Origin: Patescibacteria group bacterium
GTDB lineage: Bacteria; Patescibacteriota; Minisyncoccia; Phycocordibacterales; Phycocordibacteraceae
Assembly (NCBI GenBank): GCA_029260935.1
Contig: JAJDCJ010000012.1
Location: 33,315 to 97,314 of the forward strand
Direction of reading: 5' to 3'
DNA length: 64,000 nt
The position numbers and the translations under genes were made by a program. The notes beneath the pieces are model-generated. The model was not told the DNA's origin. It worked only from the letters and a program-made list of their open reading frames with translations, and did not search any database. Below are positions 3,438 through 49,225 of the stretch, in pieces; the first letter of the stretch is position 1, and each line of letters starts with the position of its first letter.

Positions 3438-4153
3438 ATATTCACTGCCTTTGGGTATATTTTTGTTAATGCGTGTTCTTTACAATCGTGTGGACGAGCC
3501 GAACATACATAACGTCCATACAAAACGAGCCCATTATTTACGTACTGCCAGTCTTTTTTAGGAACCAGTGCCTCAAGTTCTTTTGAAATCTTCGTTAAAT
3601 CATTACTATCTGCTAAATCAAACCGCTTTGCAAAACGCTTCACATGAGTGTCAGTAGGAATACCCTCCCATATATTAAACAGCTCACCCAAAATAACATT
3701 CGCTGTCTTGTAGGCTACCCCAGGGAGACGTTCAAGCTCCTCTTTACTGCGCGGTATACGTCCACCAAAATCATCTATAATCATTTTTGCAGATCCAATA
3801 ATTGCCTTTGTTTTATTCCTATAAAACGGAATAGATGAAAGTTCCCGCTCCAGGACACTCGGTGTTGCTCCAGCAAAGTCTTTGGCTGTACGATATTTTT
3901 TAAAAAGAGTTTTCGTTGTGTTATTTACTGCTTTGTCAGTGCATTGCGCGCTCAACATCACCGCCACCGCAAACTGGAACTGCGTACGGTACCGAAGCTC
4001 GCTCTTGGGGCGAGGGTACATCTTTTTTAGTGCACCTACTATCGCCCGAGCGCGAGTACTTCTTTTATTCCGCGCCGAACTCCTTGAGGTCGTTGAGGAC
4101 TTCTTCTGCGTGGATTTCCGGTTTAACTTTTTCATAGATTTTGGCAACCTCAC
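3416..4153 (-). CDS. nth: endonuclease III-like HhH-GPD glycosylase; probable true start near 4021 (MYPRPKSEL)
   Basis: LPGVAYKTANVILGELF HhH motif. The annotated N-terminal basic extension overlaps bcp by 89 bp, so an internal start is likely. Confidence 0.65.
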   Translation of the reverse strand: MRLPKSMKKLNRKSTQKKSSTTSRSSARNKRSTRARAIVGALKKMYPRPKSELRYRTQFQFAVAVMLSAQCTDKAVNNTTKTLFKKYRTAKDFAGATPSVLERELSSIPFYRNKTKAIIGSAKMIIDDFGGRIPRSKEELERLPGVAYKTANVILGELFNIWEGIPTDTHVKRFAKRFDLADSNDLTKISKELEALVPKKDWQYVNNGLVLYGRYVCSARPHDCKEHALTKIYPKAVNIWPRTKK

Positions 4154-6287: not shown

Positions 6288-8066
6288 TTATTTTCCTTTT
6301 GCACGTGATGATTCGTTGAGAACCTTTTTACGTAACCTAACGTTGTGTGGAGTAATTTCCAAATACTCATCTTCACTCATTATTTCCATACCACGCTCAA
6401 TGGTAAGTTCCCACGCAGGAGTCAGTTGTATAGCGTCATCATTTCCTGAGGATCGTACGTTGGTGAGGTTTTTTCCTTTAGTAGGATTGGCAACCATTTC
6501 TTCTCCTTTTGAAGTGTTCCCAATTACCTGACCTTCATACACTTCAGTTGCTGGAGGAATATAGATTACACCGCGGTCTTGTAAGTTCCACAAAGCATAG
6601 CCAAGTGCTTTTCCTGTTGCCATTGAGGTCATTGATCCCACTTGGCGCTTTTTAATTTCGCCCACAAACGGCTTAAATCCAATAACGCGACTTGAGAGTA
6701 TTCCATCTCCTTTCGTATCCACCACAAACTGGTTTTTATATCCTAAAAGACCTCGTGTTGGGCCTTCTAGCGTAATACGTACAGCATTGGTTCCTTCAGT
6801 GCGCATATCTTTCATTTGAAAACCACGTCTTCCTAATTTTTCAATAACCGTTCCCTGAAACTCAGCAGGCGTATCAATAATAACCTCTTCAAATGGCTCA
6901 GTTTTCTTTCCATCCTCTTCTCGTATAATCACGCGCGGTTGAGAAATCTGCATTTCATACCCTTCTCGGCGCATATTCTCCAAAAGTACTGCAATATGTA
7001 ATTCTCCACGACCTGAAACGTCAAACATATCGGGGCTTGTGAAATTAATTTTAAGTCCCACGTTTACTTCAAGTTCTTTCTCCAAACGCTCGCGTAGCTG
7101 GCGACTCGTTACAAATTTTCCATCACGCCCGGCAAGAGGAGAATTATTTACTAAAAAGTTTAATGTAATGGTAGGCTCATCAACGGCAATTGCAGGAAGC
7201 GCCTCTGTTGCCTGGTTAACACTCACCGTCTCACCAATAAAAATATCAGGGAGCCCTGCCAGCATGACAATGTCACCAGCTACTACTTCCTCAACTTCTA
7301 CTTTTTCAAGCCCTTTAAAGTTAAACATTTTTGTAACTTTTCCCTGTCTAATTTTTCCATCCATATCTTTTATAAAAACAGTAGATTGTGGAGAGAGCGT
7401 TCCGTCGTACACCCTACCAACTGCTAACCTACCAAGGAAATTGTCGTACCCGAGGTTAAACGGCTGGAAACGAAATGTCTTATCAACTGAACCAGACGCA
7501 GGAGGCACTTTTTCCAAAATCATATCCAAAAGAGGTGTGAGGTCTTTTGAGTCATCGCTCAAGTTTTTCTTTGCAACACCATCTCTCCCTATTGCATAGA
7601 TGACTGGAAAACTAGACTGCTCATTAGTCGCACCTAATTCCAAAAAGAGCTCTAGCACCTGTTCTTCTGCACGGTCAGGATCAGCAGCCGGTTTGTCAAT
7701 TTTATTTAAAATAACAATCGGTTTGAGCCCAAGCTCCAGTGATTTTTTTAATACAAAACGAGTCTGTGGCATCGGACCTTCTTGGGCATCAACAACGAGC
7801 AATACTGAGTCAATTGAACGTAAGACCCGCTCCACTTCACTACCAAAGTCGGCGTGCCCTGGTGTGTCAACGATATTGATCTTTGCGTCCTTATAGTTAA
7901 GTGAGCCGTTTTTTGCATAGATAGTAATACCGCGCTCTTTTTCAATAGAATCGGTGTCCATGGAAAAACCTTCTGCAACCATGCCGGTCTGGCGCATCAA
8001 AGCATCGGTAATAGTTGTTTTACCATGGTCAACGTGAGCAATAATTGCGATATTATACGTTTTCAT
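6288..8066 (-). CDS. typA: translational GTPase TypA/BipA
   Basis: NIAIIAHVDHGKTT G1 motif, DTPGHADF G3 motif, length 592 aa. Confidence 0.9.
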   Translation of the reverse strand: MKTYNIAIIAHVDHGKTTITDALMRQTGMVAEGFSMDTDSIEKERGITIYAKNGSLNYKDAKINIVDTPGHADFGSEVERVLRSIDSVLLVVDAQEGPMPQTRFVLKKSLELGLKPIVILNKIDKPAADPDRAEEQVLELFLELGATNEQSSFPVIYAIGRDGVAKKNLSDDSKDLTPLLDMILEKVPPASGSVDKTFRFQPFNLGYDNFLGRLAVGRVYDGTLSPQSTVFIKDMDGKIRQGKVTKMFNFKGLEKVEVEEVVAGDIVMLAGLPDIFIGETVSVNQATEALPAIAVDEPTITLNFLVNNSPLAGRDGKFVTSRQLRERLEKELEVNVGLKINFTSPDMFDVSGRGELHIAVLLENMRREGYEMQISQPRVIIREEDGKKTEPFEEVIIDTPAEFQGTVIEKLGRRGFQMKDMRTEGTNAVRITLEGPTRGLLGYKNQFVVDTKGDGILSSRVIGFKPFVGEIKKRQVGSMTSMATGKALGYALWNLQDRGVIYIPPATEVYEGQVIGNTSKGEEMVANPTKGKNLTNVRSSGNDDAIQLTPAWELTIERGMEIMSEDEYLEITPHNVRLRKKVLNESSRAKGK

Positions 8067-12966: not shown

Positions 12967-12995
12967 GACGCGATTTTTACGCTTCTGACTTCTTG
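12967..12995. repeat. 29-bp direct repeat GACGCGATTTTTACGCTTCTGACTTCTTG (copy 1)
   Basis: Exact match to the copy at 13657-13685; the two copies bracket the P-loop kinase gene. Confidence 0.9.
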
Positions 12996-13064: not shown

Positions 13065-13613
13065 CTATAGTCCAGTGTCTTTTTTTATTAACGCTACAGT
13101 AGCTTCAAGCGTAAAATCGTCGGTGATGATTTTCTCGCCAGGAAAGCCGATTATGTCGTTTTCTTTGTACCATCGTGCCATTTGCTCCCCTGTAAACTCA
13201 TCTCGTTTTGGTTTTGTTTGATGGCGTTTTATTGTTTCCTCAAGAGAAATATTGAAGTAGTAATAGAACGTATTATTGGGGTGTTGCTTGTTTAATTTCA
13301 GGAAAAAGTCTTTATAGACATCAAACACAAAATTTCCCTCAAGAATTACATGAAAACCTCTTTCTAAGCAAAACATCACTGTTTGATAGATAAGGTCTGC
13401 GTTGTGTGTCCGGGGACGCCCTCTGCATTCTCGCAAGACTTCTCGACGAAGATAGTCTTGTTCAATAATCGCGATGTTTTCTTCTGACTGTTCGCGCAGC
13501 TTTTTGGCAACAGTACTTTTCCCACTCCCAGAACTGCCACGCAGGATGATAAGTTTGGTATCCATTGCTTTATCATAACAAAGGTTAATGGATGCAAACA
13601 TATCTAGTACCAC
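13065..13613 (-). CDS. P-loop nucleotide/nucleoside kinase-like protein
   Basis: LIILRGSSGSGKSTVAKKL Walker A motif; likely start at the internal MDTKL; size about 165-180 aa. Confidence 0.6.
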   Translation of the reverse strand: MVLDMFASINLCYDKAMDTKLIILRGSSGSGKSTVAKKLREQSEENIAIIEQDYLRREVLRECRGRPRTHNADLIYQTVMFCLERGFHVILEGNFVFDVYKDFFLKLNKQHPNNTFYYYFNISLEETIKRHQTKPKRDEFTGEQMARWYKENDIIGFPGEKIITDDFTLEATVALIKKDTGL

Positions 13614-13656: not shown

Positions 13657-13685
13657 GACGCGATTTTTACGCTTCTGACTTCTTG
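13657..13685. repeat. 29-bp direct repeat (copy 2)
   Basis: Identical to 12967-12995. Confidence 0.9.
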
Positions 13686-15176: not shown

Positions 15177-15679
15177 TTTTTATCATCAGTATTCCAAAAT
15201 CTCTCAACCTCTTCCTGTTTCTTTTTCCTTTCTGAATCCAACTCATTCCTAAATGACTGCCCCAATTCATTTGCAAATCTATTTTCAATTTCTTCAACTC
15301 TTAGGTATGCTTCACGACCTTCATTTTGGTGTTCTTTACTGCTTTCGTCATCTTCACTTTCTAATGATAGATAATGTGAAGAATTTTGTCTGCTGAGATT
15401 GTACGCGTAATCTTTCCAATCTTCAGCTAAACGAACCAATTTAGATTGATCATGTTTATGTTTTTCTTTCAATCGAATGTACCAGTCTTTCATTCTTACT
15501 ACTTCTGGTTCATCTTCTTCCAACCCATAGGCAACCTTAGCTGTTGTTCTGTATGAATTAAGCATTAAGTCTGCAAATTCCTCGTATTTTTCTATCTTTT
15601 TTGCAGGTGTCGAATCAAGCACTAGTTTTGCTATGTACCAAATTGCCACGATTATTAAAATTGTATAAATAAAACTCAT
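15173..15679 (-). CDS. membrane-anchored coiled-coil protein, first gene of the operon (start corrected to MSFIYTIL)
   Basis: N-terminal TM helix IYTILIIVAIWYIAKLVL followed by a highly charged E/K/D-rich region; overlaps the ATPase gene by 4 bp (ATGA). Confidence 0.55.
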   Translation of the reverse strand: MSFIYTILIIVAIWYIAKLVLDSTPAKKIEKYEEFADLMLNSYRTTAKVAYGLEEDEPEVVRMKDWYIRLKEKHKHDQSKLVRLAEDWKDYAYNLSRQNSSHYLSLESEDDESSKEHQNEGREAYLRVEEIENRFANELGQSFRNELDSERKKKQEEVERFWNTDDKK

Positions 15680-15780
15680 ATCTTTTATTCTATCGCAACC
15701 ACCATATTTATATAGTAAGTTGCCTGCAACGCTCTTCGAGCGCACGAGATCGCTATATTCCTCGAGCTAGCTCGATTTGG
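15680..15780 (-). promoter_or_regulatory. conserved 5' flank/promoter of cassette locus A (homologous to 43350-43447)
   Basis: Shares TTGCGATAG(A/T)ATAAAA(G/A)AT immediately before the ATG, plus CTCGTGCGCTCGA and GAGCTAGC blocks, with locus B. Confidence 0.7.
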
Positions 15781-15935
15781 CTGGGGGACAGGGACTCGAA
15801 CCCCGATTGATGGCACCAGAAACCATAGTCCTACCGACAAGCGAGTGAGGGTCACAGGAAAGTTTACTTTCATATGACCGAACGAGCGCAGTCGGAAAGC
15901 TTTGCTTACCACTGGACGATCCCCCAAGGCGTTAG
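15781..15935 (-). tRNA. tRNA-Gln(CUG) interrupted in the D-loop by an 81-nt insertion
   Basis: The exons fold into a canonical 74-nt tRNA with U1-A72, G73, D-arm GUCC/GGAC, anticodon loop UUCUGGU and T-loop UUCGAGU. The insert starts AGCAAAGCUU. Confidence 0.6.
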
Positions 15936-16044
15936 CAATACCTAACACTGGGCACACAATAGCCAAAAATGGGTATACTTTCAAGAGCGACGGTGCAGTG
16001 CGCTATACTGAATACATAAAAAATCTAATCCGTAATAAGAATAT

Positions 16045-16524
16045 ATGAAAGATGTAATTGTAATTGTAATCGTCCTTTTATTAGTGGCCGCTGGATATTA
16101 TTTCTTTTTCCAAAACCCACGACCAAACACGAGCGCTACAGAGCAACAATCAACCATACCTGAAGTGAGTTCACAAACCGCTGGAAATATTGACAGTGCC
16201 GAAGGTGAAGTTATAGACGATGGAGACGGACCGGTGAAAACCTTTACCATTGAAGGTCAGAACTTTTCTTTCTCTCCTTCTGTTATGAGCGTTGATCAGG
16301 GTGATACTGTACGCGTGGTATTTAAAAACGTTGGTGGTTTCCACGACTTCACACTGGACGAGTTTGGCGCAAAAACAAAACGCATCAACACTGGGGAAGA
16401 AGCCGTGGTTGAGTTTGTTGCCGACAAAACTGGTTCTTTTGAGTATTACTGTTCAGTGGGCACCCACCGACAATTCGGCATGAAAGGCACTATTACAGTA
16501 AATGAATTACCTGAAGAAAATTAA
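16045..16524 (+). CDS. membrane-anchored cupredoxin (plastocyanin/amicyanin-like type-1 copper protein)
   Basis: N-terminal TM anchor, then GGFHDF...YYCSVGTHRQFGM, which supplies His, Cys, His, Met copper ligands. Confidence 0.65.
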   Translation: MKDVIVIVIVLLLVAAGYYFFFQNPRPNTSATEQQSTIPEVSSQTAGNIDSAEGEVIDDGDGPVKTFTIEGQNFSFSPSVMSVDQGDTVRVVFKNVGGFHDFTLDEFGAKTKRINTGEEAVVEFVADKTGSFEYYCSVGTHRQFGMKGTITVNELPEEN

Positions 16525-20931: not shown

Positions 20932-21022
20932 AACAGACTTTTTTGGGTAAGATACTGAGGTGTTGGGGTACGTAAAACTTTCCTTGGCACTACTCAGACA
21001 AAGTCAGTAGTGTGCCGTTGTA

Positions 21023-21157
21023 AGCAAAGCTTGCACCGGCGGCGTTCTAACAAAATATACTCACGGGCGGTTTTGTTCTTTCAGAAAAATGTAAACGAGC
21101 TTTCATTTTTCTTCTATCACAAAACCACGCGCTTCGCGCAATTTCCGTGAGCAACTT
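21023..21157 (+). mobile_element. about 135-nt inserted element beginning AGCAAAGCTT, flanked by a 9-bp duplication of the tRNA-Thr 5' end
   Basis: GCCGTTGTA occurs at 21014-21022 and again as the first 9 nt of the tRNA at 21158-21166. Confidence 0.5.
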
Positions 21158-21233
21158 GCCGTTGTAGCTCAGCTGGTAGAGCGCATCCATGGTAAGGATG
21201 AGGTCCCCGGTTCAAACCCGGGCAACGGCTCCA
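21158..21233 (+). tRNA. tRNA-Thr(GGU)
   Basis: Cloverleaf with anticodon loop AUGGUAA, T-loop UUCAAAC, encoded CCA. Confidence 0.85.
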
Positions 21234-21762: not shown

Positions 21763-21878
21763 CTATACCAATTCTACCGTCCCCCAGTATGTCCTATCGG
21801 GGGGGTGCTTTTTATTCTTATTTTCCACAATCATCTGTTACCCCCCCCTATAGACACTGGATGTCCATGGGGGATTCA

Positions 21879-21931
21879 GCCACGTAAAAGTAAATATGGA
21901 CACGCCGTGTCCATATTTACTTTTACGTGGC
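21879..21931. repeat. 53-bp perfect palindrome
   Basis: GCCACGTAAAAGTAAATATGGACACG / CGTGTCCATATTTACTTTTACGTGGC; its 27-bp core recurs at 44164-44196. Confidence 0.9.
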
Positions 21932-21932
21932 T

Positions 21933-22090
21933 CTCCGGCGAAGCCGGACCCAGCTCCGCCGGGCGGTCCGCATATGTAAGCAAAGCTTCCTCTCATCGAT
22001 CACTCGGAAGAGTAACCGCATTCACTCTTCCCTCGCTTCTCTCGATAGTAAAGAAAAACAGTACGCAGGTACTGTTTGTTCTTTCATATG
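21933..22090. repeat. repeat-family copy: GCTCCGCCGGGC motif, GTAAGCAAAGCTT, internal hairpins, ending at the tRNA-Asp 3' end
   Basis: Shares GCTCCGCCGGGC and GTAAGCAAAGC with the 48786-49225 array, and TTTGTTCTTTCA with 21023-21157. Confidence 0.6.
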
Positions 22091-22165
22091 CGCGGCCGAC
22101 CGGACTCGAACCGGCAACCTCCCGCGTGACAGGCGGGTGCTACTAACCAATTGAGCTACGGCCGC
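22091..22165 (-). tRNA. tRNA-Asp(GUC)
   Basis: Anticodon loop CUGUCAC, T-loop UUCGAGU, acceptor GCGGCCG/CGGCCGC. Confidence 0.8.
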
Positions 22166-22850
22166 ATTTCGGATACAGAGTATGTATTGCCTTCGAAAAT
22201 AGCTCGTATTTCCTTGGTAAATACAGTTCTGTATTAGGGCTAGTATGATACATCAGCTTGTAAAGTGCAAGACTATCGCGATGACTAAAAACAAGTTCAA
22301 AGCCTCGCTTCTTGTACTTTTCTAAAACAAATCCCCTATTCAGACCATTTTCTCTAAGAGTACTAAAGAGTGTTAGAAGAAATTTTTGAGATCCTGACGT
22401 GAATCTGCTTGTAAATACCCAACGTTTTTTGTTTCGATCTTTAGCAAAATATTTTTTAAAATGAACGCTGCCGTCGCCATCAAAATATCCCCTGACGAAA
22501 TGATGTAAATATCCTTGAGGGACTTTTGGGAAACAGATTGTTTTGCTTTTGTTTTGAGTGAAACCAAGTTTTATCAAATCAGAGAACCATTCTCTACTTC
22601 CAAACTGCACGCGATACTGTTGCTTCCATTTTTCGTTCCTTTGAGGACGTTCCGAAATTTTCTGAGTTCCTCCGACAATCTTCCGTAATTTTTGAAGCAA
22701 AATTTTGTCTGTAGATGTAAATTCAATATAGTGTCCTCCTCTTTTATTCTCAATCATTGAACCGTCTGCGGCAAAATACCCCAATACATACGCCATGTCT
22801 GATGTCCACGTTTTGAAAAAGTCTTGGTTTAGCTTCTTTTTTATTGGCAC
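22143..22850 (-). CDS. double-motif LAGLIDADG homing-endonuclease-family protein, free-standing, directly 5' of tRNA-Asp
   Basis: Two motifs, VLGYFAADGSM and VRGYFDGDGSV, spaced about 100 aa apart; the 3' end overlaps the tRNA 5' region by about 23 nt. Confidence 0.7.
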   Translation of the reverse strand: MPIKKKLNQDFFKTWTSDMAYVLGYFAADGSMIENKRGGHYIEFTSTDKILLQKLRKIVGGTQKISERPQRNEKWKQQYRVQFGSREWFSDLIKLGFTQNKSKTICFPKVPQGYLHHFVRGYFDGDGSVHFKKYFAKDRNKKRWVFTSRFTSGSQKFLLTLFSTLRENGLNRGFVLEKYKKRGFELVFSHRDSLALYKLMYHTSPNTELYLPRKYELFSKAIHTLYPKCGRSSIG

Positions 22851-24161: not shown

Positions 24162-24401
24162 TTATTTGGTAGGTCCCTTGGTACTGCCATGCCCACGACA
24201 CCCTTCGCATTTTTTAAATAGGTCTTCTACGAACCAACCGCCACGATTTCCGCAATGTTGACACCCTCCACCTTCACACTTCCTACATATATGCCACGAT
24301 TTTCCATACCCAGACCCCTTACATTTTGTACAAATAGTAGGATCAAAATCTTTTTTGTATTGAGTTTCAAACATATGGTGCCGACGGCAGGAATTGGTCA
24401 C
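24162..24401 (-). CDS. small DnaJ-type zinc-finger protein (four CxxCxGxG repeats); likely start MFETQYKK
   Basis: CTKCKGSG, CRKCEGGG, CQHCGNRG, CEGCRGHG; the annotated N-terminus overlaps the tRNA-Met-derived repeat. Confidence 0.55.
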   Translation of the reverse strand: MTNSCRRHHMFETQYKKDFDPTICTKCKGSGYGKSWHICRKCEGGGCQHCGNRGGWFVEDLFKKCEGCRGHGSTKGPTK

Positions 24402-24768
24402 CCGTCGCTAACCATTTTACTTCATAAACTCGTAAAATGCTAATCGCGCTCCACCCCGACTCGGCAACGTGTGCTCCGCCACGGCTTCGCACCCTCTGTC
24501 TTTCAATTCCTTCCGTCTTGTTCAAATTGTAAAAAATACTATGCATGCGCATAGTATTTAACAATTTGTGCCGACGGCAGGAATTGGTCAGGAGTCCATG
24601 AAAATTAGAGTCACTGCCGTTCCTTAATTTTCTATGGCTCACGACCCTGGCTCGGCGACAAGCACTCGTCGTACCTCCTCGTCTTGTATACCGCCTCCGC
24701 CTTTCAATTCCTGTCAATCAGGCACATTGTAAAAAACACCATACTCAAACGTATGATGTTTTACAATG
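24367..24768. repeat. two tandem about-200-bp units, each ending with a copy of the tRNA-Met 3' end (GTGCCGACGGCAGGAATTG)
   Basis: The 19-mer occurs at 24367, 24568 and 24768 (the last is the tRNA itself). The units share CTCGGC, CTTTCAATTCCT and TTGTAAAAAA blocks. Confidence 0.8.
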
Positions 24769-24844
24769 TGTGCCGACGGCAGGAATTGAACCTGCGACCT
24801 TAGCTTTATGAGTGCTACGCTCTAACCAACTGAGCTACGCCGGC
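24769..24844 (-). tRNA. tRNA-Met(CAU) elongator-type (could be the k2C Ile2 species)
   Basis: Acceptor GCCGGCG/CGUCGGC, anticodon loop CUCAUAA, T-loop UUCAAUU. Confidence 0.75.
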
Positions 24845-24896
24845 AAACGAGGAAGATAATGGAAGTGCGGAGCAATTACATTATTTCCGAGTGCAG

Positions 24897-25070
24897 CCGA
24901 CGCAAGCTCCGCTTACGCCGGCAAACTGCTTACGAGGATAGCGCGAAGCGCGTGTTTTTGCGAGTGAAGAAAAACAGAAGCTTGTTTATGTTTTTCTGAG
25001 AGAGCAAAAAAACTCGAAAGCGTATTCTGTCAGAGTGGGCCCGACGCAAGCTCCGCTTACGCCGGCAAAC
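24897..25070. repeat. two copies of a 30-nt acceptor-stem minihelix repeat CCGACGCAAGCTCCGCTTACGCCGGCAAAC
   Basis: Copies at 24897-24926 and 25041-25070. Read on the minus strand they give GCCGGCG-UAAGCGGAGCUUG-CGUCGGC, reproducing the tRNA-Met acceptor stem. Confidence 0.75.
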
Positions 25071-25121: not shown

Positions 25122-25450
25122 TGTTGCGGGGCCCAGAATCGAACTGGGGTCTGGAGGTTCTTTTACACTCAATGTTTCCAAAGAGAATGGACTATACCAT
25201 GGTCCACGTGGGACCCTCCCATTATAGTCTCTGAACCTTCCGAGCTATATCAAACGATATGGCTTGGCTTGGCTGCTGATTACCGAATCAACTTGCTTTT
25301 TAAACCATCGCACTCACCCTCTCAGGTCATGCTGTGGTGCAAGAAGCTCTAACGGCTTTCCAGCAATTTAGAGAGTTTTCCACCGTCTGTTGCCAAACGG
25401 GGTCACGTTCTTCACATGAGCCTCCCGAGGTACCTCTCCTCTACCCCGCG
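25122..25450 (-). ncRNA. about 330-nt structured RNA with tRNA-like T-arm and acceptor end; possible tmRNA (ssrA), unconfirmed
   Basis: 3' end CCCAGUUCGAUUCUGGG-CCCCGCA-A-CA pairs with 5' CGCGGGG. The region has no ORF and smpB is present in the window. There is no G3-U70 pair and no classic tag. Confidence 0.35.
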
Positions 25451-30089: not shown

Positions 30090-30680
30090 TTAAAACTGTA
30101 CACGAATGGCACGCTCAATACGGCGGGGGTTTGTGGTAACACATGTATTATGACCTGAGGAAACTACAGTGGTGCGTGTTGGATTTTCAGTTCTCTTCAC
30201 TTCAACATTTGAACACGCCTCTGATATAGCGTTCCCGAGTGAAAAAGAGAACGTAGTGGTATACGTTTGTGAAACCGGTTCAAATACACGAGTCAAAGGA
30301 ACAGTACTGCTTGGTAAGTCTCCGGTGCCACACGCTATTTCGGTTAACGGTGATGAGGTAGAGAAAGCATCTTGTTTACTATCCCAATAAAGGGCGCACT
30401 CTATTCCTGAGTCGGCTGCATAAAATGCAAACTGCGACTCCCTTCCTGATGAGGAAAGAATGACGTCTTTCACCGCGATATTAAAAATTGCGAAGCCAAG
30501 CGCCAGCAGTACGCTGGAAATCAAAACCGAGAGTAATAATGTGAACCCACGCAGTGGTTTTGTAGTGTGAGCGCTCAGTAGTAATGAGCGGTCAGTTTTT
30601 TCCTGACTGCTGAGCGCTGGATACTGATTGCTCATTGCTGATTGCTCATTGCTGATTGTTAGTTTTTTTATCATAGCCAA
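30090..30680 (-). CDS. pseudopilin / minor type IV pilin with long N-terminal leader
   Basis: Prepilin motif RG|FTLLLSVLISS; the leader contains SNEQSAMSNQ...KTDRSLL. Confidence 0.6.
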   Translation of the reverse strand: MAMIKKLTISNEQSAMSNQYPALSSQEKTDRSLLLSAHTTKPLRGFTLLLSVLISSVLLALGFAIFNIAVKDVILSSSGRESQFAFYAADSGIECALYWDSKQDAFSTSSPLTEIACGTGDLPSSTVPLTRVFEPVSQTYTTTFSFSLGNAISEACSNVEVKRTENPTRTTVVSSGHNTCVTTNPRRIERAIRVQF

Positions 30681-31270
30681 TCAAAAAGTTGTTCTCTTAC
30701 TTCAAACGAGCGCTCTAGACGTCCACTTTGCCAAGAGACCGTAACGCTCACCGTCACTTCGTCAGGGTTCAATGTAGACGGATCAACACGAAGGGTACGG
30801 GTATATATACTTGGAATGCCGGCAACTAAATTAAAAAACCCTGTAGTTTCTCCTATTAAGACAGTTGGACATTGTCCCGAACATGATTGATGAGAGAAGT
30901 TTGGAAAATCAATAGCACAATCCAAGCCAACACACTCTGAAAGTCCATTGAGCCACCCACTTCCTACAAGATAATTTTGATCACGGACTGCACGCACATA
31001 CTCCACTGCTTCTTGCGCAAGATAAAATGCTGTAATTTGATCGCGTGCATAGAACGCAGACTGAAGTGATTGCGATGCAATTGAAAGTGGGCCTGCAAGT
31101 GAGACAAGAAGCACTGAAATTGCAACGAGAGTTTCAATCAACGTAAAACCACCTCGCAACTTCACACGATGAATAGTGAACAGCGAGCGGTCAGTTTTCT
31201 GCTGATTGCTGAGCGCTGATTGCTCATTGCTGTTTACTGTTTGCTGGATGCTGGATGCTATTTTCATCAT
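30671..31270 (-). CDS. pseudopilin / minor type IV pilin
   Basis: GG|FTLIETLVAISV; same conserved leader; possible GTG or TTG start just before KLRGG. Confidence 0.6.
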   Translation of the reverse strand: MMKIASSIQQTVNSNEQSALSNQQKTDRSLFTIHRVKLRGGFTLIETLVAISVLLVSLAGPLSIASQSLQSAFYARDQITAFYLAQEAVEYVRAVRDQNYLVGSGWLNGLSECVGLDCAIDFPNFSHQSCSGQCPTVLIGETTGFFNLVAGIPSIYTRTLRVDPSTLNPDEVTVSVTVSWQSGRLERSFEVREQLFDWL

Positions 31271-31929
31271 ATATCAATTATACGTTGCGTAACGGATGCC
31301 TGAACAGAGAAATTTGTAGTTCCTCCAGGAACAGGGGCCGACCCTTGTATTTTCATTAACACGCGCGGTTGAATAGAATCGCCTTTCACTGCACCCACCA
31401 CAAAAAACTCAAAAGAATCAATAGAGACTTCGGGTGCCGTGAGTGCAACCCACGAACCGTTAATGCCTGCCTGTACGGAGCGCTCAAGTTGTGTACCGTT
31501 AATGCGATAAACGATCTGATCATTGACGTCTGCAGTCTCTCCATTTGCCGCTTCAAAGGCAAATAACTGTCCACCACCAACCGGACAGTCCTGTGGGGTG
31601 CTGAGCTGGCCAGGGAAAGGTGCGGCTGATGAGATACGGCAATGATACGTAGTCCCGACGCGAATAGACCGCGACATACCTTCAAGCGCTGCATTCATAT
31701 TATTTACCACTGAGTTGATGGCCTGCGCCCGGCGGTTTGCGTCAATAAGTGACAAAAGTGCGCCTACCCCAATAAGCATAACCACTGAGAACAGCGTCAC
31801 CGCAACCATCATTTCAATCAATGTGAAGCCGGCTCTGGGCTTCATGCGGTGAGCAGTGAGCAGTGAGCGATCAGTTTTCTGCTGATTGCTGATTGCTGGA
31901 TGCTGGATGCTGATTGCTGTTTTACTCAT
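31267..31929 (-). CDS. pseudopilin / minor type IV pilin
   Basis: AG|FTLIEMMVAVTLF; an internal MKPRAG would give a conventional short leader. Confidence 0.6.
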   Translation of the reverse strand: MSKTAISIQHPAISNQQKTDRSLLTAHRMKPRAGFTLIEMMVAVTLFSVVMLIGVGALLSLIDANRRAQAINSVVNNMNAALEGMSRSIRVGTTYHCRISSAAPFPGQLSTPQDCPVGGGQLFAFEAANGETADVNDQIVYRINGTQLERSVQAGINGSWVALTAPEVSIDSFEFFVVGAVKGDSIQPRVLMKIQGSAPVPGGTTNFSVQASVTQRIIDI

Positions 31930-32516
31930 AGGTTTTGTACGGAAATCTGCCCTGTTGAAGCAATGTTAATAGTGCGTGTTTCTCCTCCCTGGGAAGCAAC
32001 AGTGATAATGCCACGCGAGTAAATACCTGGTTCATTTGAACTTATAAGAGCATCAGGGTTTGGACGAAGGAACACTACATCAAGGTGACTAATAGGAGTG
32101 CTTGAGTTAGAGCATCGCTCAGTGCCACCTACGGTGACTCCACAGAAGCTCTGTATGGTATGTCCACGACTTAAAGAGAACGTATCTATGACCGCATCAG
32201 TGCCAACATCATATGTTTGGTTTGTATTAGTGTCCACGAAAAAAAGGTATGTACTGTTTGGAAGAAAACGCACCCCATAGCCGACTTGAAAATTATCTGA
32301 GAATTGCCGTACCGAAAGACCAAACACCTGTGCCTCACGAACCGAGAGTGCAATATCGTAGGCGAGCGAACCAAGGAGCACTGAGCTATTAAATTTATTA
32401 TTGTTCGCCAAAACAACCGTTGATATAAATGCAAAAATACTTACCGCAACGATAAGCTCTATAAGAGAAAAACCTCGTGACTGTTTAGTTAAGACATTCA
32501 TATGGCGAGCGCCCAC
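31926..32516 (-). CDS. pseudopilin / minor type IV pilin
   Basis: RG|FSLIELIVAVSIFAF. Confidence 0.6.
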   Translation of the reverse strand: MGARHMNVLTKQSRGFSLIELIVAVSIFAFISTVVLANNNKFNSSVLLGSLAYDIALSVREAQVFGLSVRQFSDNFQVGYGVRFLPNSTYLFFVDTNTNQTYDVGTDAVIDTFSLSRGHTIQSFCGVTVGGTERCSNSSTPISHLDVVFLRPNPDALISSNEPGIYSRGIITVASQGGETRTINIASTGQISVQNL

Positions 32517-43349: not shown

Positions 43350-43447
43350 ATTTTTATACTATCGCAATTAATAAATTTGTATAGCGAACTGCCTACAAAC
43401 TGCCTCGAGCGCACGAGGAATATAGCTTCTTCGTGCTAGCTCTAAAC
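43350..43447 (-). promoter_or_regulatory. conserved 5' flank/promoter of cassette locus B
   Basis: Homologous to 15680-15780; the overlapping ORF 43368-43622 is probably spurious. Confidence 0.65.
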
Positions 43448-43468
43448 GGCGGAGACGCAGGGATTCGG
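43448..43468. repeat. partial copy of the tRNA-Ser 3' end (GCGGAGACGCAGGGATTCGG)
   Basis: Matches 43641-43661, the tRNA T-arm and acceptor, at 20 of 21 positions. Confidence 0.75.
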
Positions 43469-43639
43469 TCACCTTTACTAAGTATTTTACTCCTCTCGTT
43501 CGTAAAACACTAAGTGACGCGACCCCGTCGGCTACTACTGCGTATTCTCGCAGGCTTCGCAGTAGCCTCTTTTCGAATCCCTCATCGTCCGTAGAATGTA
43601 CAAGCCAAAATGCTATTCGCATCAGGGCTTACCATTTTA

Positions 43640-43728
43640 TGCGGAGACGGAGGGATTCGAACCCTCGAGGGGTATTACCCCCTGGCACATTAGCAGCGTG
43701 CTGGTTTCAACCACTCACCCACGTCTCC
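43640..43728 (-). tRNA. tRNA-Ser(GCU), class II with long variable arm
   Basis: Acceptor GGAGACG/CGUCUCC, D-arm GGU/ACC with loop GAGUGGUUGAA, anticodon loop CUGCUAA, variable arm CAGGGGGUAAUACCCCUCG, T-loop UUCGAAU. Confidence 0.8.
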
Positions 43729-43772
43729 AATCAGTTCACTAGTTTTACATCGTTACGGATGAGAGACGAAGG

Positions 43773-43791
43773 ACCACTCACCCACGTCTCC
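43773..43791. repeat. partial copy of the tRNA-Ser 5' end (CCACTCACCCACGTCTCC)
   Basis: Duplicates 43711-43728, about 45 nt beyond the tRNA 5' end. Confidence 0.75.
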
Positions 43792-43895
43792 TCAACAAGT
43801 AGTATAGTGCCTTATTGTGTGTATCTTTTCAAATTCTTTGAGAAAAAGGTATCTAACACCATTTAATCCCTAAATATTAAGATATACAAGGACCT

Positions 43896-44085: not shown

Positions 44086-44196
44086 TAGCACAGTACCTAC
44101 GTATATAAATACGTATTTATATACGTAGGTGTTGTAAGAAACAAAAACCCTTTCACACACTAGTTGAAATATGGACACGGCGTGTCCATATTTCAA
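44086..44196. promoter_or_regulatory. divergent intergenic region with two perfect palindromes
   Basis: Palindrome 1 (44086-44119): CCTACGTATATAAATACG/CGTATTTATATACGTAGG. Palindrome 2 (44164-44196): TTGAAATATGGACACG/CGTGTCCATATTTCAA. Both lie between the AbrB-like gene and zwf. Confidence 0.7.
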
Positions 44197-48785: not shown

Positions 48786-49225
48786 TTTGTCGTCACAAGT
48801 AATTTTCCTGACGGAAAATTTTCGCGCGACCAATTTCTCTTATGAGTCAGACGAATTAGAGAAATGGAAGTACTCCTGTGGTGACCCCGGCTCGCCCGGC
48901 TCCGCCGGGCTGCGCCTCTCGGACATGTACGCGAAAACGCCAAGCAGTTGGCTTACGTGTCGTCACAGATAATCCTTCGTCGCCACTCAGGATTTCCGCG
49001 ACCCCGGCTCGTGGTTTTTCCTGCTGGAAAAACATCACTGCGCCTCGGACAAACGCACAAAAACCTGCCGCAGGGCAGGTCTTTGTGTACTTGTCGTCAC
49101 AAGTTGCTAAGTATTTTAGAGCGCTTCGCTTCTAGAATACTAAGCACTCGCGACCCCGGCTCGCCCGGCTCCGCCGGGCTGCGCCTCTCGAACCAGCGCC
49201 GTAAGCAAAGCAGTTTGCTTACTAA
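48786..49225. repeat. tandem array of three composite repeat units (130-170 nt each)
   Basis: Each unit is TGTCGTCACARRT, a unit-specific palindromic hairpin, CGCGACCCCGGCTCG, a second hairpin (CCCGGCTCCGCCGGG in units 1 and 3), CTGCGCCTC(T)CG, then a variable tail. Unit 3 ends with GTAAGCAAAGCAGTTTGCTTAC. Confidence 0.8.

Follow-up and report, generated by a model that had tools for sequence, protein, structure and literature searches.

Insertion of a tRNA-leader repeat unit into the D-loop of a Patescibacteria tRNA-Gln(CUG) gene and its probable loss of function

The stretch of DNA considered here (the window) comprises 64,000 nucleotides (nt) of a metagenome-assembled genome (MAG) of a Patescibacteria group bacterium (GenBank assembly GCA_029260935.1, contig JAJDCJ010000012.1, positions 33,315 to 97,314), and encodes RF2, FtsE, FtsX, CTP synthase, GatA, LigA, type IV pilus proteins and other housekeeping functions. 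Candidatus Paceibacterota and other Patescibacteria MAGs provide the named best matches to its CTP synthase, the closest non-self sequence being 80% identical. The gene order RF2-FtsE-FtsX-CTP synthase-tRNA-Gln(CUG) is kept in the relatives L002 (CTP synthase 80% identical) and L003-L005 (76%). In the window, the tRNA-Gln(CUG) gene that closes this series is split within its D-loop by 75 nt that constitute one complete unit of a repeat family otherwise associated with the leaders of tRNA genes.

A first-pass annotation of this DNA had recognised a tRNA-Gln(CUG) gene split in its D-loop, and this is borne out both by ARAGORN, which finds a canonical tRNA once the 75 nt are removed, and by alignment of the two halves with the uninterrupted genes of relatives. 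An interruption of this sort is, as had been remarked, unusual among bacteria. The boundaries proposed at that stage require correction: the gene, assigned to 15781-15935, occupies 15778-15926 of the minus strand (CCA included), and the insert, taken to be 81 nt at 15835-15915, is 75 nt long and lies at 15832-15906. The canonical 74-nt tRNA expected upon excision is indeed obtained with the corrected boundaries, whereas deletion of 15835-15915 destroys the D-arm, part of which is missing from the resulting ...GGGGGATCGT joined to GTAGGAC.... ARAGORN calls no tRNA in the intact 171 nt, and after deletion of the 75 nt reports a 74-nt tRNA-Gln(ctg) with U1-A72, G73 and CCA. The two exon halves fold as had been envisaged, the exact cloverleaf being the minimum-free-energy structure of the spliced 74-mer (-27.5 kcal/mol). 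Because GGTA both precedes and closes the insert, its boundary is ambiguous by 4 nt. Within the 64-kb window there is no other tRNA-Gln gene.

The assignment of the insert to a family of repeats, made on the basis of its AGCAAAGCTT start, is upheld by the distribution of the 13-mer GTAAGCRRAGCTT, whose expected count in the window is 0.34 and which is present there in five copies, a number reached in 0 of 100 shuffles; all five lie within 150 nt of tRNA genes. The corresponding units are designated A (the insert) to E (Table 1). Units start with AGCRRAGCTT and end with a tRNA-Met leader and the first bases of a tRNA, and the family can be defined by the succession of an AGC-RRA-GCU hairpin, an element X', a second hairpin, a CTCAYTT/CTCGYTT tail and X-GTA, over approximately 72-80 nt, with X' pairing to X. 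Directly following AGCRRAGCTT, X' is the 3' acceptor strand of the tRNA, or nearly so; in units D and E it reads CGTCGGC and so retains tRNA-Met's own G5-U68 wobble. This yields a 12-bp hairpin, X-GUAAGC-RRA-GCUUG-X'. Upstream of tRNA-Met, units D and E follow one another in tandem. Ahead of each of units B, D and E stand nt 1-9 of the following tRNA (tRNA-Thr in the case of B) together with 1-4 leader nt, and the unit closes with the same sequence, there the true 5' end of an intact tRNA. The flanking repeats vary by copy (3-4, 10 and 13 nt), and at every family junction GTA is found on both sides; each copy is preceded by GTA, has GTA as its last bases and contains hairpins.

Table 1. Coordinates of the split tRNA-Gln(CUG) gene, its insert and the units of the repeat family in the window
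Feature	Position	Strand	Description
5' segment	15907..15926	-	acceptor UGGGGGA, U8 C9, D-stem GUCC, D-loop AGUGGUA; aligns with orthologues; sequence 15926-15907, read 5' to 3': TGGGGGATCGTCCAGTGGTA
Insert, 75 nt (unit A, tRNA-Gln D-loop)	15832..15906	-	one full tRNA-leader repeat unit, AGCAAAGCTT...CTCGCTTGTCGGTA; sequence 15906-15832, read 5' to 3': AGCAAAGCTTTCCGACTGCGCTCGTTCGGTCATATGAAAGTAAACTTTCCTGTGACCCTCACTCGCTTGTCGGTA
3' segment	15778..15831	-	D-stem GGAC, anticodon arm with CUG, T-arm, acceptor 3' strand, G73, encoded CCA; partial Rfam tRNA match; sequence 15831-15778, read 5' to 3': GGACTATGGTTTCTGGTGCCATCAATCGGGGTTCGAGTCCCTGTCCCCCAGCCA
Apical hairpin of insert, AGC-AAA-GCU	15898..15906	-	family signature; 97% of cells paired in family alignment
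X' (CCGAC) of insert	15891..15895	-	5' strand of insert-closing helix; fold and family alignment
Second hairpin of insert, GGUCAUAUGAAAGU-AAAC-UUUCCUGUGACC	15850..15879	-	equivalent hairpin in L137 unit 2
X (GUCGG) of insert	15834..15838	-	3' strand of closing helix; fold and family alignment
Sigma-70-like promoter match, TTGAAA-17-TATTGT	15956..15984	-	approximately 30 nt upstream of tRNA-Gln nt 1
Unit B, 144 nt from AGCAAAGCTT	21011..21166	+	3' end is nt 1-9 of intact tRNA-Thr(GGU)
Unit C, 72 nt	21979..22050	+	3' of tRNA-Asp, opposite strand
Unit D, 144 nt	24914..25070	-	upstream copy of GTTT and tRNA-Met nt 1-9
Unit E, 78 nt	24836..24913	-	last 9 nt are nt 1-9 of intact tRNA-Met

A covariance model built from six units (R1) recovers, in the window, these five copies and no others (unit E, itself a training sequence, at 84 bits), and also matches a further type of unit, the sixth, which lies upstream of tRNA-Asp in L137. 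In the small alignment of six sequences the apical hairpin is 97% paired and the helix formed by X' with the 3'-terminal X of the same unit 83% paired; jointly the two helices are 89% paired, a value that falls to 17-42% upon sliding of the partner, and in four pairs both sides have changed. The second hairpin contributes two compensatory pairs, read directly from the comparison of B (AGAAAAATG/CATTTTTCT) with D (AGAAAAACA/TGTTTTTCT). Scanning metagenomes with the motif plus a GC-type acceptor complement (GTAAGCRRAGCTTGCRYCGG) gave 19 matches, three of which are real units (L137, L138 and L140) situated directly 5' of tRNA-Met or tRNA-Thr sequences; the remaining 16 are attributable to chance, almost all of them lying in GC-rich DNA away from any tRNA. 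Both L138 and L137 are syntenic relatives (GatA 74% and 56% identical, respectively). Among the matches listed for a viral scan with the motif there were single chance matches only, the phage and plasmid collections contained no match to the locus, and we found no description of short D-loop inserts or leader repeats of this kind in the full-text literature searched. A duplicated promoter cassette was considered and rejected, as a sigma-70 scan sees promoter-like sites upstream of the units and of tRNA-Gln and none inside the units. A cyanobacterial source of the DNA was also rejected, since HIP1 sites are absent and the encoded proteins assign the organism to Paceibacterota. Separately, L137 contains, at 6733-6887 and upstream of tRNA-Asp, two tandem units of the same architecture whose apical hairpins are CTTTGC-TTCG-GCAAAG and CGTGC-TTCG-GCACG; because these differ from the hairpin of the window units, the architecture is wider than the AGCRRAGCTT motif.

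The insert itself folds as a self-closed domain of two hairpins, with a stability equalled by 0 of 200 shuffles (z = -3.9). It has the same length (75 nt) as L137 unit 2, to which it is 70% identical throughout, and is at most 70% identical to every other copy; when its first 10 nt, i.e. the shared 10-mer, are left out, its similarity to L137 unit 2 gives z = 7.5, with values of 5.9 to L140, 5.2 to L137 unit 1 and 3.1 to unit C. Model R1 scores it at 63 bits over all 90 positions, the insert being one of the six training sequences. Its X corresponds to the first bases of the GUCGGCG-type tRNA-Met acceptor strand in related units, and its end, CTT-GTCGG-TA, aligns with TTT-GTCGGCG-TA, the leader and nt 1-9 of the L137 tRNA-Met. 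The terminal GTCGGTA had been regarded as a partial duplication of the flanking D-loop (GUGGUA/GUCGGUA). This is not supported: since it aligns with the leader and tRNA-Met 5' end and not with the D-loop, GTCGGTA is family sequence, of which the target shares only GGTA, and the remainder is the conserved 3' end of the family. The insert aligns with the family over its full length and forms the X'-X helix, but does not stand directly 5' of an intact tRNA whose nt 1-9 end the unit. As judged from the sequence, it is one complete period of a tRNA-Met-type leader repeat, and an ectopic copy, in that it lies inside tRNA-Gln and ends in a GTCGG-TA of tRNA-Met and not of tRNA-Gln type.

We compared the locus with those of relatives, including ten Patescibacteria loci, L127 among them and from other species only, that were obtained by using the 3' exon in a degenerate search of the genome collection. 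By ARAGORN, tRNA-Gln(CUG) is uninterrupted in 14 of the 14 relatives' loci, adjoins CTP synthase in at least L002-L005 and L127, and aligns with both halves of the split gene; the absence of any interruption in these 14 marks the insert as lineage-specific. No relative closer than 80% CTP synthase identity was present in the collections searched, and for this reason the insertion cannot be dated more finely. Neither the exact 3' exon nor an empty allele with identical exons was found in the JGI metagenomes. The Logan contig L001 is 100% identical to the window over 1869 nt and extends 26 nt into the insert across the same 5' junction; as it is identical, it is not independent, and it may derive from the same reads. 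Insertion is also seen elsewhere in the family. L127, a Paceibacteria MAG whose CTP synthase is 59% identical, has the same eleven genes and tRNAs in the same order in a compact locus, which presents an exact empty site for the 72 nt of unit C, CCGCATATGTA abutting AAGAAAAACAG (also written CCGCATATGTA abutting AAGAAAAAC), and lacks units B, D and E together with the group I intron and LAGLIDADG gene described below. The unit tail CCTCAYTT matches the native tRNA-Met leader, also in the unit-free L127.

Partial 5' copies of tRNA-Gln(CUG) were observed upstream of the intact gene in genomes of Saccharibacteria, Dojkabacteria and Paceibacterota (L134, 369-700; L131, 12-165; L135, approximately 3519-3589, minus strand). 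Those in L134 and L131 stop in the D-loop after nt 17, near the position of the insert, and this part of tRNA-Gln is therefore a recurrent breakpoint; that in L135 stops after nt 9 and continues with the 3' acceptor strand.

Several classes of intron were considered for the insert and rejected. Nothing in the insert was matched in Rfam, whether the gathering threshold or permissive E-values were applied; at E<=10 over 15650-16050 the only matches were a partial tRNA, a T-arm match and a chance-level match of 20 nt resembling a group II domain 5 (D5-like; 12.6 bits, E = 8.5), to which a permissive search of the whole window added nothing. The group I core (RF00028) has no match at E<=10 in the same interval; the insert is moreover 75 nt long as against the usual >200 nt, lies in the D-loop and not the anticodon loop, and within its 4-nt ambiguity no frame combines a U-ended exon with a G-ended insert. 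A group II intron would have six domains with a catalytic domain V and would be hundreds of nt in length, whereas the insert is 75 nt long and the D5-like match is at chance level. Self-cleaving ribozymes (hammerhead, twister, pistol, hatchet, HDV-like) were not found at E<=10 near the insert or at E<=0.5 across the window. The best candidate for the bulge-helix-bulge motif of archaeal/eukaryal-type introns combines a 2-bp outer helix with a central helix of 4 bp, in which there are two G-U pairs and one mismatch, and its score is matched by 144 of 2000 shuffled inserts (7%). In its intron mode, which looks in the anticodon loop, ARAGORN yields a spurious, forced tRNA-Asp with a 51-nt intron. 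The insert is too short and unstructured for a self-splicing intron. A bona fide group I intron does occur in the window, in a tRNA-fMet(CAU) gene at 25122-25450 (minus strand), where 256 nt at 25160-25415 follow U36 (RF00028, 55 bits); this split gene is missed by ARAGORN, and its orthologue in L127 is intron-free.

Taken together, we consider that ectopic insertion of a tRNA-leader repeat unit has probably inactivated tRNA-Gln(CUG), loss of function being an inference from the sequence. The first-pass annotation had offered a choice between an intervening sequence that must be removed and a recent, inactivating insertion. The evidence leans to inactivation, because all 14 relatives are uninterrupted, the insert is an ordinary full-length unit, and neither Rfam nor a bulge-helix-bulge motif supports an intron; recency is not demonstrated, the nearest relative being 80% identical in CTP synthase. 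Family units elsewhere lie outside mature tRNA sequence. In the usual setting a unit is placed directly 5' of tRNA-Met or tRNA-Thr in the same orientation, arranged as the AGC-RRA-GCU hairpin, X' as a copy of the 3' acceptor strand, the second hairpin, the leader CCTCAYTT and X-GTA as tRNA nt 1-9; the downstream tRNA remains intact, and upstream of the unit there is a 9-13-nt copy of its 5' end. In the present case a tRNA-Met-type unit (CTT-GTCGG-TA) may have been copied or integrated ectopically at the GGTA in the D-loop of tRNA-Gln, the point of entry being A21/G22 or any equivalent position within G18-A21, by use of no more than the 3-4 nt of identity (GTA or GGTA) available at every family junction. 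Because such a unit carries tRNA-Met-type bases in place of the 5' bases of tRNA-Gln, the gene is split and not restored. Transcription from the gene's own promoter would then produce a 149-nt RNA in which the insert forms a self-contained two-hairpin domain within the D-loop and, because the insert is too short and unstructured to self-splice and has neither a ribozyme match nor a convincing endonuclease motif, standard tRNA-Gln(CUG) would most probably be lost. The reading of CAG would then fall to a tRNA-Gln(UUG) from another locus; such a tRNA must exist, since CAA codons are used.

A number of observations weigh against this interpretation. The exons are flawless, with all stems paired, conserved nucleotides present, CCA encoded and no decay, and acceptor-stem substitutions relative to the relatives are fully compensated; a long-dead gene should have decayed, yet these exons are intact. 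In the 149-nt precursor, a fold that keeps the cloverleaf and accommodates the insert as a separate domain has a free energy of -52.8 kcal/mol, only 0.9 kcal/mol above the minimum of -53.7 kcal/mol. CAG accounts for 48% of Gln codons in the open reading frames (ORFs) of the window, with no avoidance evident, and as tRNA-Gln(CUG) is kept in every relative examined its loss should be costly. To these may be added the promoter-like site upstream of the split gene, which is a consensus match of a kind that shuffled sequences yield equally often. Finally, no integrase, resolvase, transposase or recombinase domain is found among the approximately 40 ORFs of the window, and the mechanism of insertion is unproven.

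The interrupted gene might alternatively be functional, a possibility that we regard as real though doubtful. The 149-nt precursor might be matured by a protein endonuclease and an RtcB-type ligase that remove or nick the insert, the product might act as a two-piece tRNA held together by its acceptor and D stems, or a 75-nt D-loop expansion at positions 17 or 20a/b might simply be tolerated. Besides the perfect exons with their encoded CCA, the upstream promoter-like site, the near-optimal fold with an independent insert domain, the heavy CAG usage and the conservation of the gene in relatives, such a reading draws on the unusual stability of the insert, on the juxtaposition of its two ends (which results from closure by its own helix), and on the GGUA repeat, by virtue of which it can sit between G19/U20 or U16/G18. 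These are length-variable, solvent-exposed parts of the D-loop. Nevertheless, the insert is a unit like any other in its family, which elsewhere lies outside mature tRNAs, it is found here in 0 of 14 relatives, and it has neither a significant bulge-helix-bulge motif nor a ribozyme match; nor do we know of any bacterial pathway for removing from tRNAs an insert that is not a ribozyme. Both RNase P and the ribosome make contact with the D-loop and elbow, and features of the D-arm and D-loop matter for recognition by GluRS and GatCAB, so that a 75-nt domain at this position is likely to interfere. A related and, to our minds, unlikely reading is that the leader units are functional pre-tRNA modules that act as acceptor-stem mimics, and that the split gene still gives tRNA-Gln(CUG). 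X' could then pair in either the minihelix-like 12-bp hairpin or with the real 5' acceptor strand, thereby gating folding or processing, and the same unknown machinery might handle the copy in tRNA-Gln, with the 75-nt D-loop sequence being removed or kept as a large D-loop expansion; tRNA interruptions in bacteria would thereby gain a novel class.

It is very unlikely that the insertion is reversible or polymorphic, with precise excision at the GGTA/GTA repeats or with an empty allele (...CCAGTGGTA joined directly to GGACTATGG) in part of the population. The GTA present on both sides of every family junction and the undamaged exons are compatible with this, and the direct repeats of tandem units could conceivably release one-period circles; however, the Logan contig L001 shows no branch at the junction (though it may share its reads with the window), a recombinase was not seen among the window ORFs, and the JGI metagenomes hold no empty allele with identical exons. 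We consider it highly improbable that the insert is a miniature inverted-repeat transposable element (MITE)-like transposon that has duplicated its D-loop target. Five copies in 64 kb, the empty site of unit C, the absence of B, D and E from L127 and the flanking of the unit as GGTA...GGTA might suggest as much, but the terminal GTCGGTA aligns with the leader and GTCGGCGTA of the L137 tRNA-Met and not with the D-loop, the flanking repeats have no fixed length (3-4, 10 or 13 nt), no terminal inverted repeats are apparent on reading the unit ends (X' and X being internal to the fold of one strand), and a transposase was not found among the window ORFs. Lastly, misjoining of a repeat copy into the tRNA gene during assembly is conceivable for a repeated family in a metagenome-assembled genome but hardly credible here, given that the tRNA halves are in the correct order and orientation and exactly abut a full-length unit, that the insert sequence is unique (no other copy exceeding 70% identity), and that the same 5' junction occurs in L001.

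The window contains further repeats linked to tRNA genes. At 24378-24770 (minus strand) the final 19 nt of tRNA-Met (CAATTCCTGCCGTCGGCAC) are found twice more downstream, in each case after a terminator-like hairpin and approximately 140 nt that start with the complementary CAGGAATTG; the region has no Rfam match, and the copies represent either 3'-end scars of att type or a structured RNA of unknown kind whose 3' end resembles that of a tRNA. At 43440-43800 (minus strand) nt 1-19 of tRNA-Ser(GCU) are duplicated 63 nt upstream, followed by a mimic of the acceptor 3' strand (CGTCTCT), and a 3'-end fragment (CGAATCCCTGCGTCTCC) lies approximately 170 nt downstream, with an inverted partial copy between tRNA and fragment. 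Approximately 110 nt on the 3' side of tRNA-Gln (15683-15790) are 77% identical to the flank of this tRNA-Ser 3' fragment (43350-43470) and represent a second, 3'-trailer repeat family. Downstream of tRNA-Gln are also encoded an AAA_21 (AbiEii/OLD-like) ATPase and an unknown 168-aa protein; together with a perfect 29-nt direct repeat (12967-12995 and 13657-13685) that flanks an AAA_33/zeta-toxin-like ORF (13065-13613), these may form a small island on the 3' side of the gene. An ORF of 235 aa resembling LAGLIDADG homing endonucleases (22143-22850, minus strand), absent in L127, ends within the first 23 nt of tRNA-Asp. Adjoining tRNA-Ile(UAU), an unusual isoacceptor, at 48880-49220 (plus strand), the hairpin repeat GACCCCGGCTCG...CTGCGCCTC occurs three times and is followed by the perfect hairpin GTAAGCAAAGCAGTTTGCTTAC, which has 11 nt in common with the family motif; a GC-rich piece resembling these repeats precedes unit C at 21930-21970.

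Other repeats in the window include a perfect 27+27-nt palindrome at 21878-21932 whose central 27 nt recur 22 kb away (44167-44193), and an 80-120-nt repeat (30586-31944) at the starts of three tandem paralogous ORFs (30090-31929) beside the type IV pilus genes.

Known causes of tRNA gene interruption or duplication provide partial parallels. Integrative elements leave partial copies of tRNA genes as attL/attR duplications, according to the part of PMC9897764 in which Williams 2002 and Reiter 1989 are cited. Such att scars resemble units B, D and E, in which a short direct repeat of a tRNA segment (here the tRNA 5' end, copied over 10-13 nt) flanks inserted DNA and one of the junctions restores the tRNA; a direct repeat with an intact tRNA at one junction is seen for B, D, E, L137 and L140, and the 19-nt 3'-end copies beyond tRNA-Met are of the classical kind. 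In contrast, the inserted DNA is here 44-144 nt and non-coding, duplicates the 5' and not the 3' end, carries the complementary acceptor strand and is conserved at the tRNA-Met locus between distant genomes, and no integrase was found among the approximately 40 window ORFs; at tRNA-Gln, moreover, the repeat is confined to GGTA and no tRNA is restored. The group I introns that Patescibacteria carry in their tRNA genes exceed 200 nt, interrupt the anticodon loop, possess a catalytic core and self-splice (PMC13011429). The insert shares with these its phylum and the failure of standard tRNA finders to detect the interrupted gene, an example being the tRNA-fMet gene 9 kb away, but differs in its 75 nt, its D-loop position and its want of a group I match.

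In archaea, bulge-helix-bulge introns occur at the D-loop and other positions, and split tRNA genes are known (PMC3978253, PMC3241643); a disruption-by-insertion model, with an origin in the insertion of mobile DNA, has been discussed for archaeal tRNAs (PMC3293823). The present insert is likewise short, not self-splicing and outside the anticodon loop, and its exons reconstitute a perfect tRNA; unlike archaeal introns, which are cut at the bulge-helix-bulge by the EndA splicing endonuclease, it has no significant motif of this type. To our knowledge no EndA-like tRNA splicing endonuclease exists in bacteria. None of att duplications, archaeal introns and split tRNAs, or Patescibacteria group I introns fits the insert.

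Small structured repeats that insert 3' of a short fixed sequence include elements derived from IS200/IS605 and the REP/REPIN sequences with their RAYT transposases. Copies of the present family similarly lie 3' of GTA and end in GTA, have hairpins near their ends and lack a fixed-length target duplication, but the window encodes no Y1 transposase, the leader units have 10-13-nt flanking repeats, the units track the acceptor stem of the adjacent tRNA, and tRNA genes are almost the only sites of insertion. Rickettsia palindromic elements are short structured repeats inside coding and RNA genes that may be tolerated in the product, and thus share with the insert its location in an otherwise intact gene of essential type; they belong to another sequence family and another host group, and we know of no report of one in a tRNA D-loop.

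If the gene is dead, the locus would constitute a clean natural case of a small tRNA-associated repeat splitting a tRNA gene in a reduced genome, and would explain why a standard annotation of the source MAG would list tRNA-Gln(CUG) as 'missing'. The more useful by-product is the repeat family itself, whose units, approximately 75 nt long, reproduce nt 1-9 of a tRNA together with the matching 3' acceptor strand and occupy tRNA-Met and tRNA-Thr leaders in several Paceibacterota. If instead the gene is functional, bacteria would have their first case of a tRNA bearing a short intervening sequence that is not a ribozyme, or a giant D-loop expansion, and the disruption of tRNAs by insertion, hitherto an archaeal topic, would become testable in bacteria.

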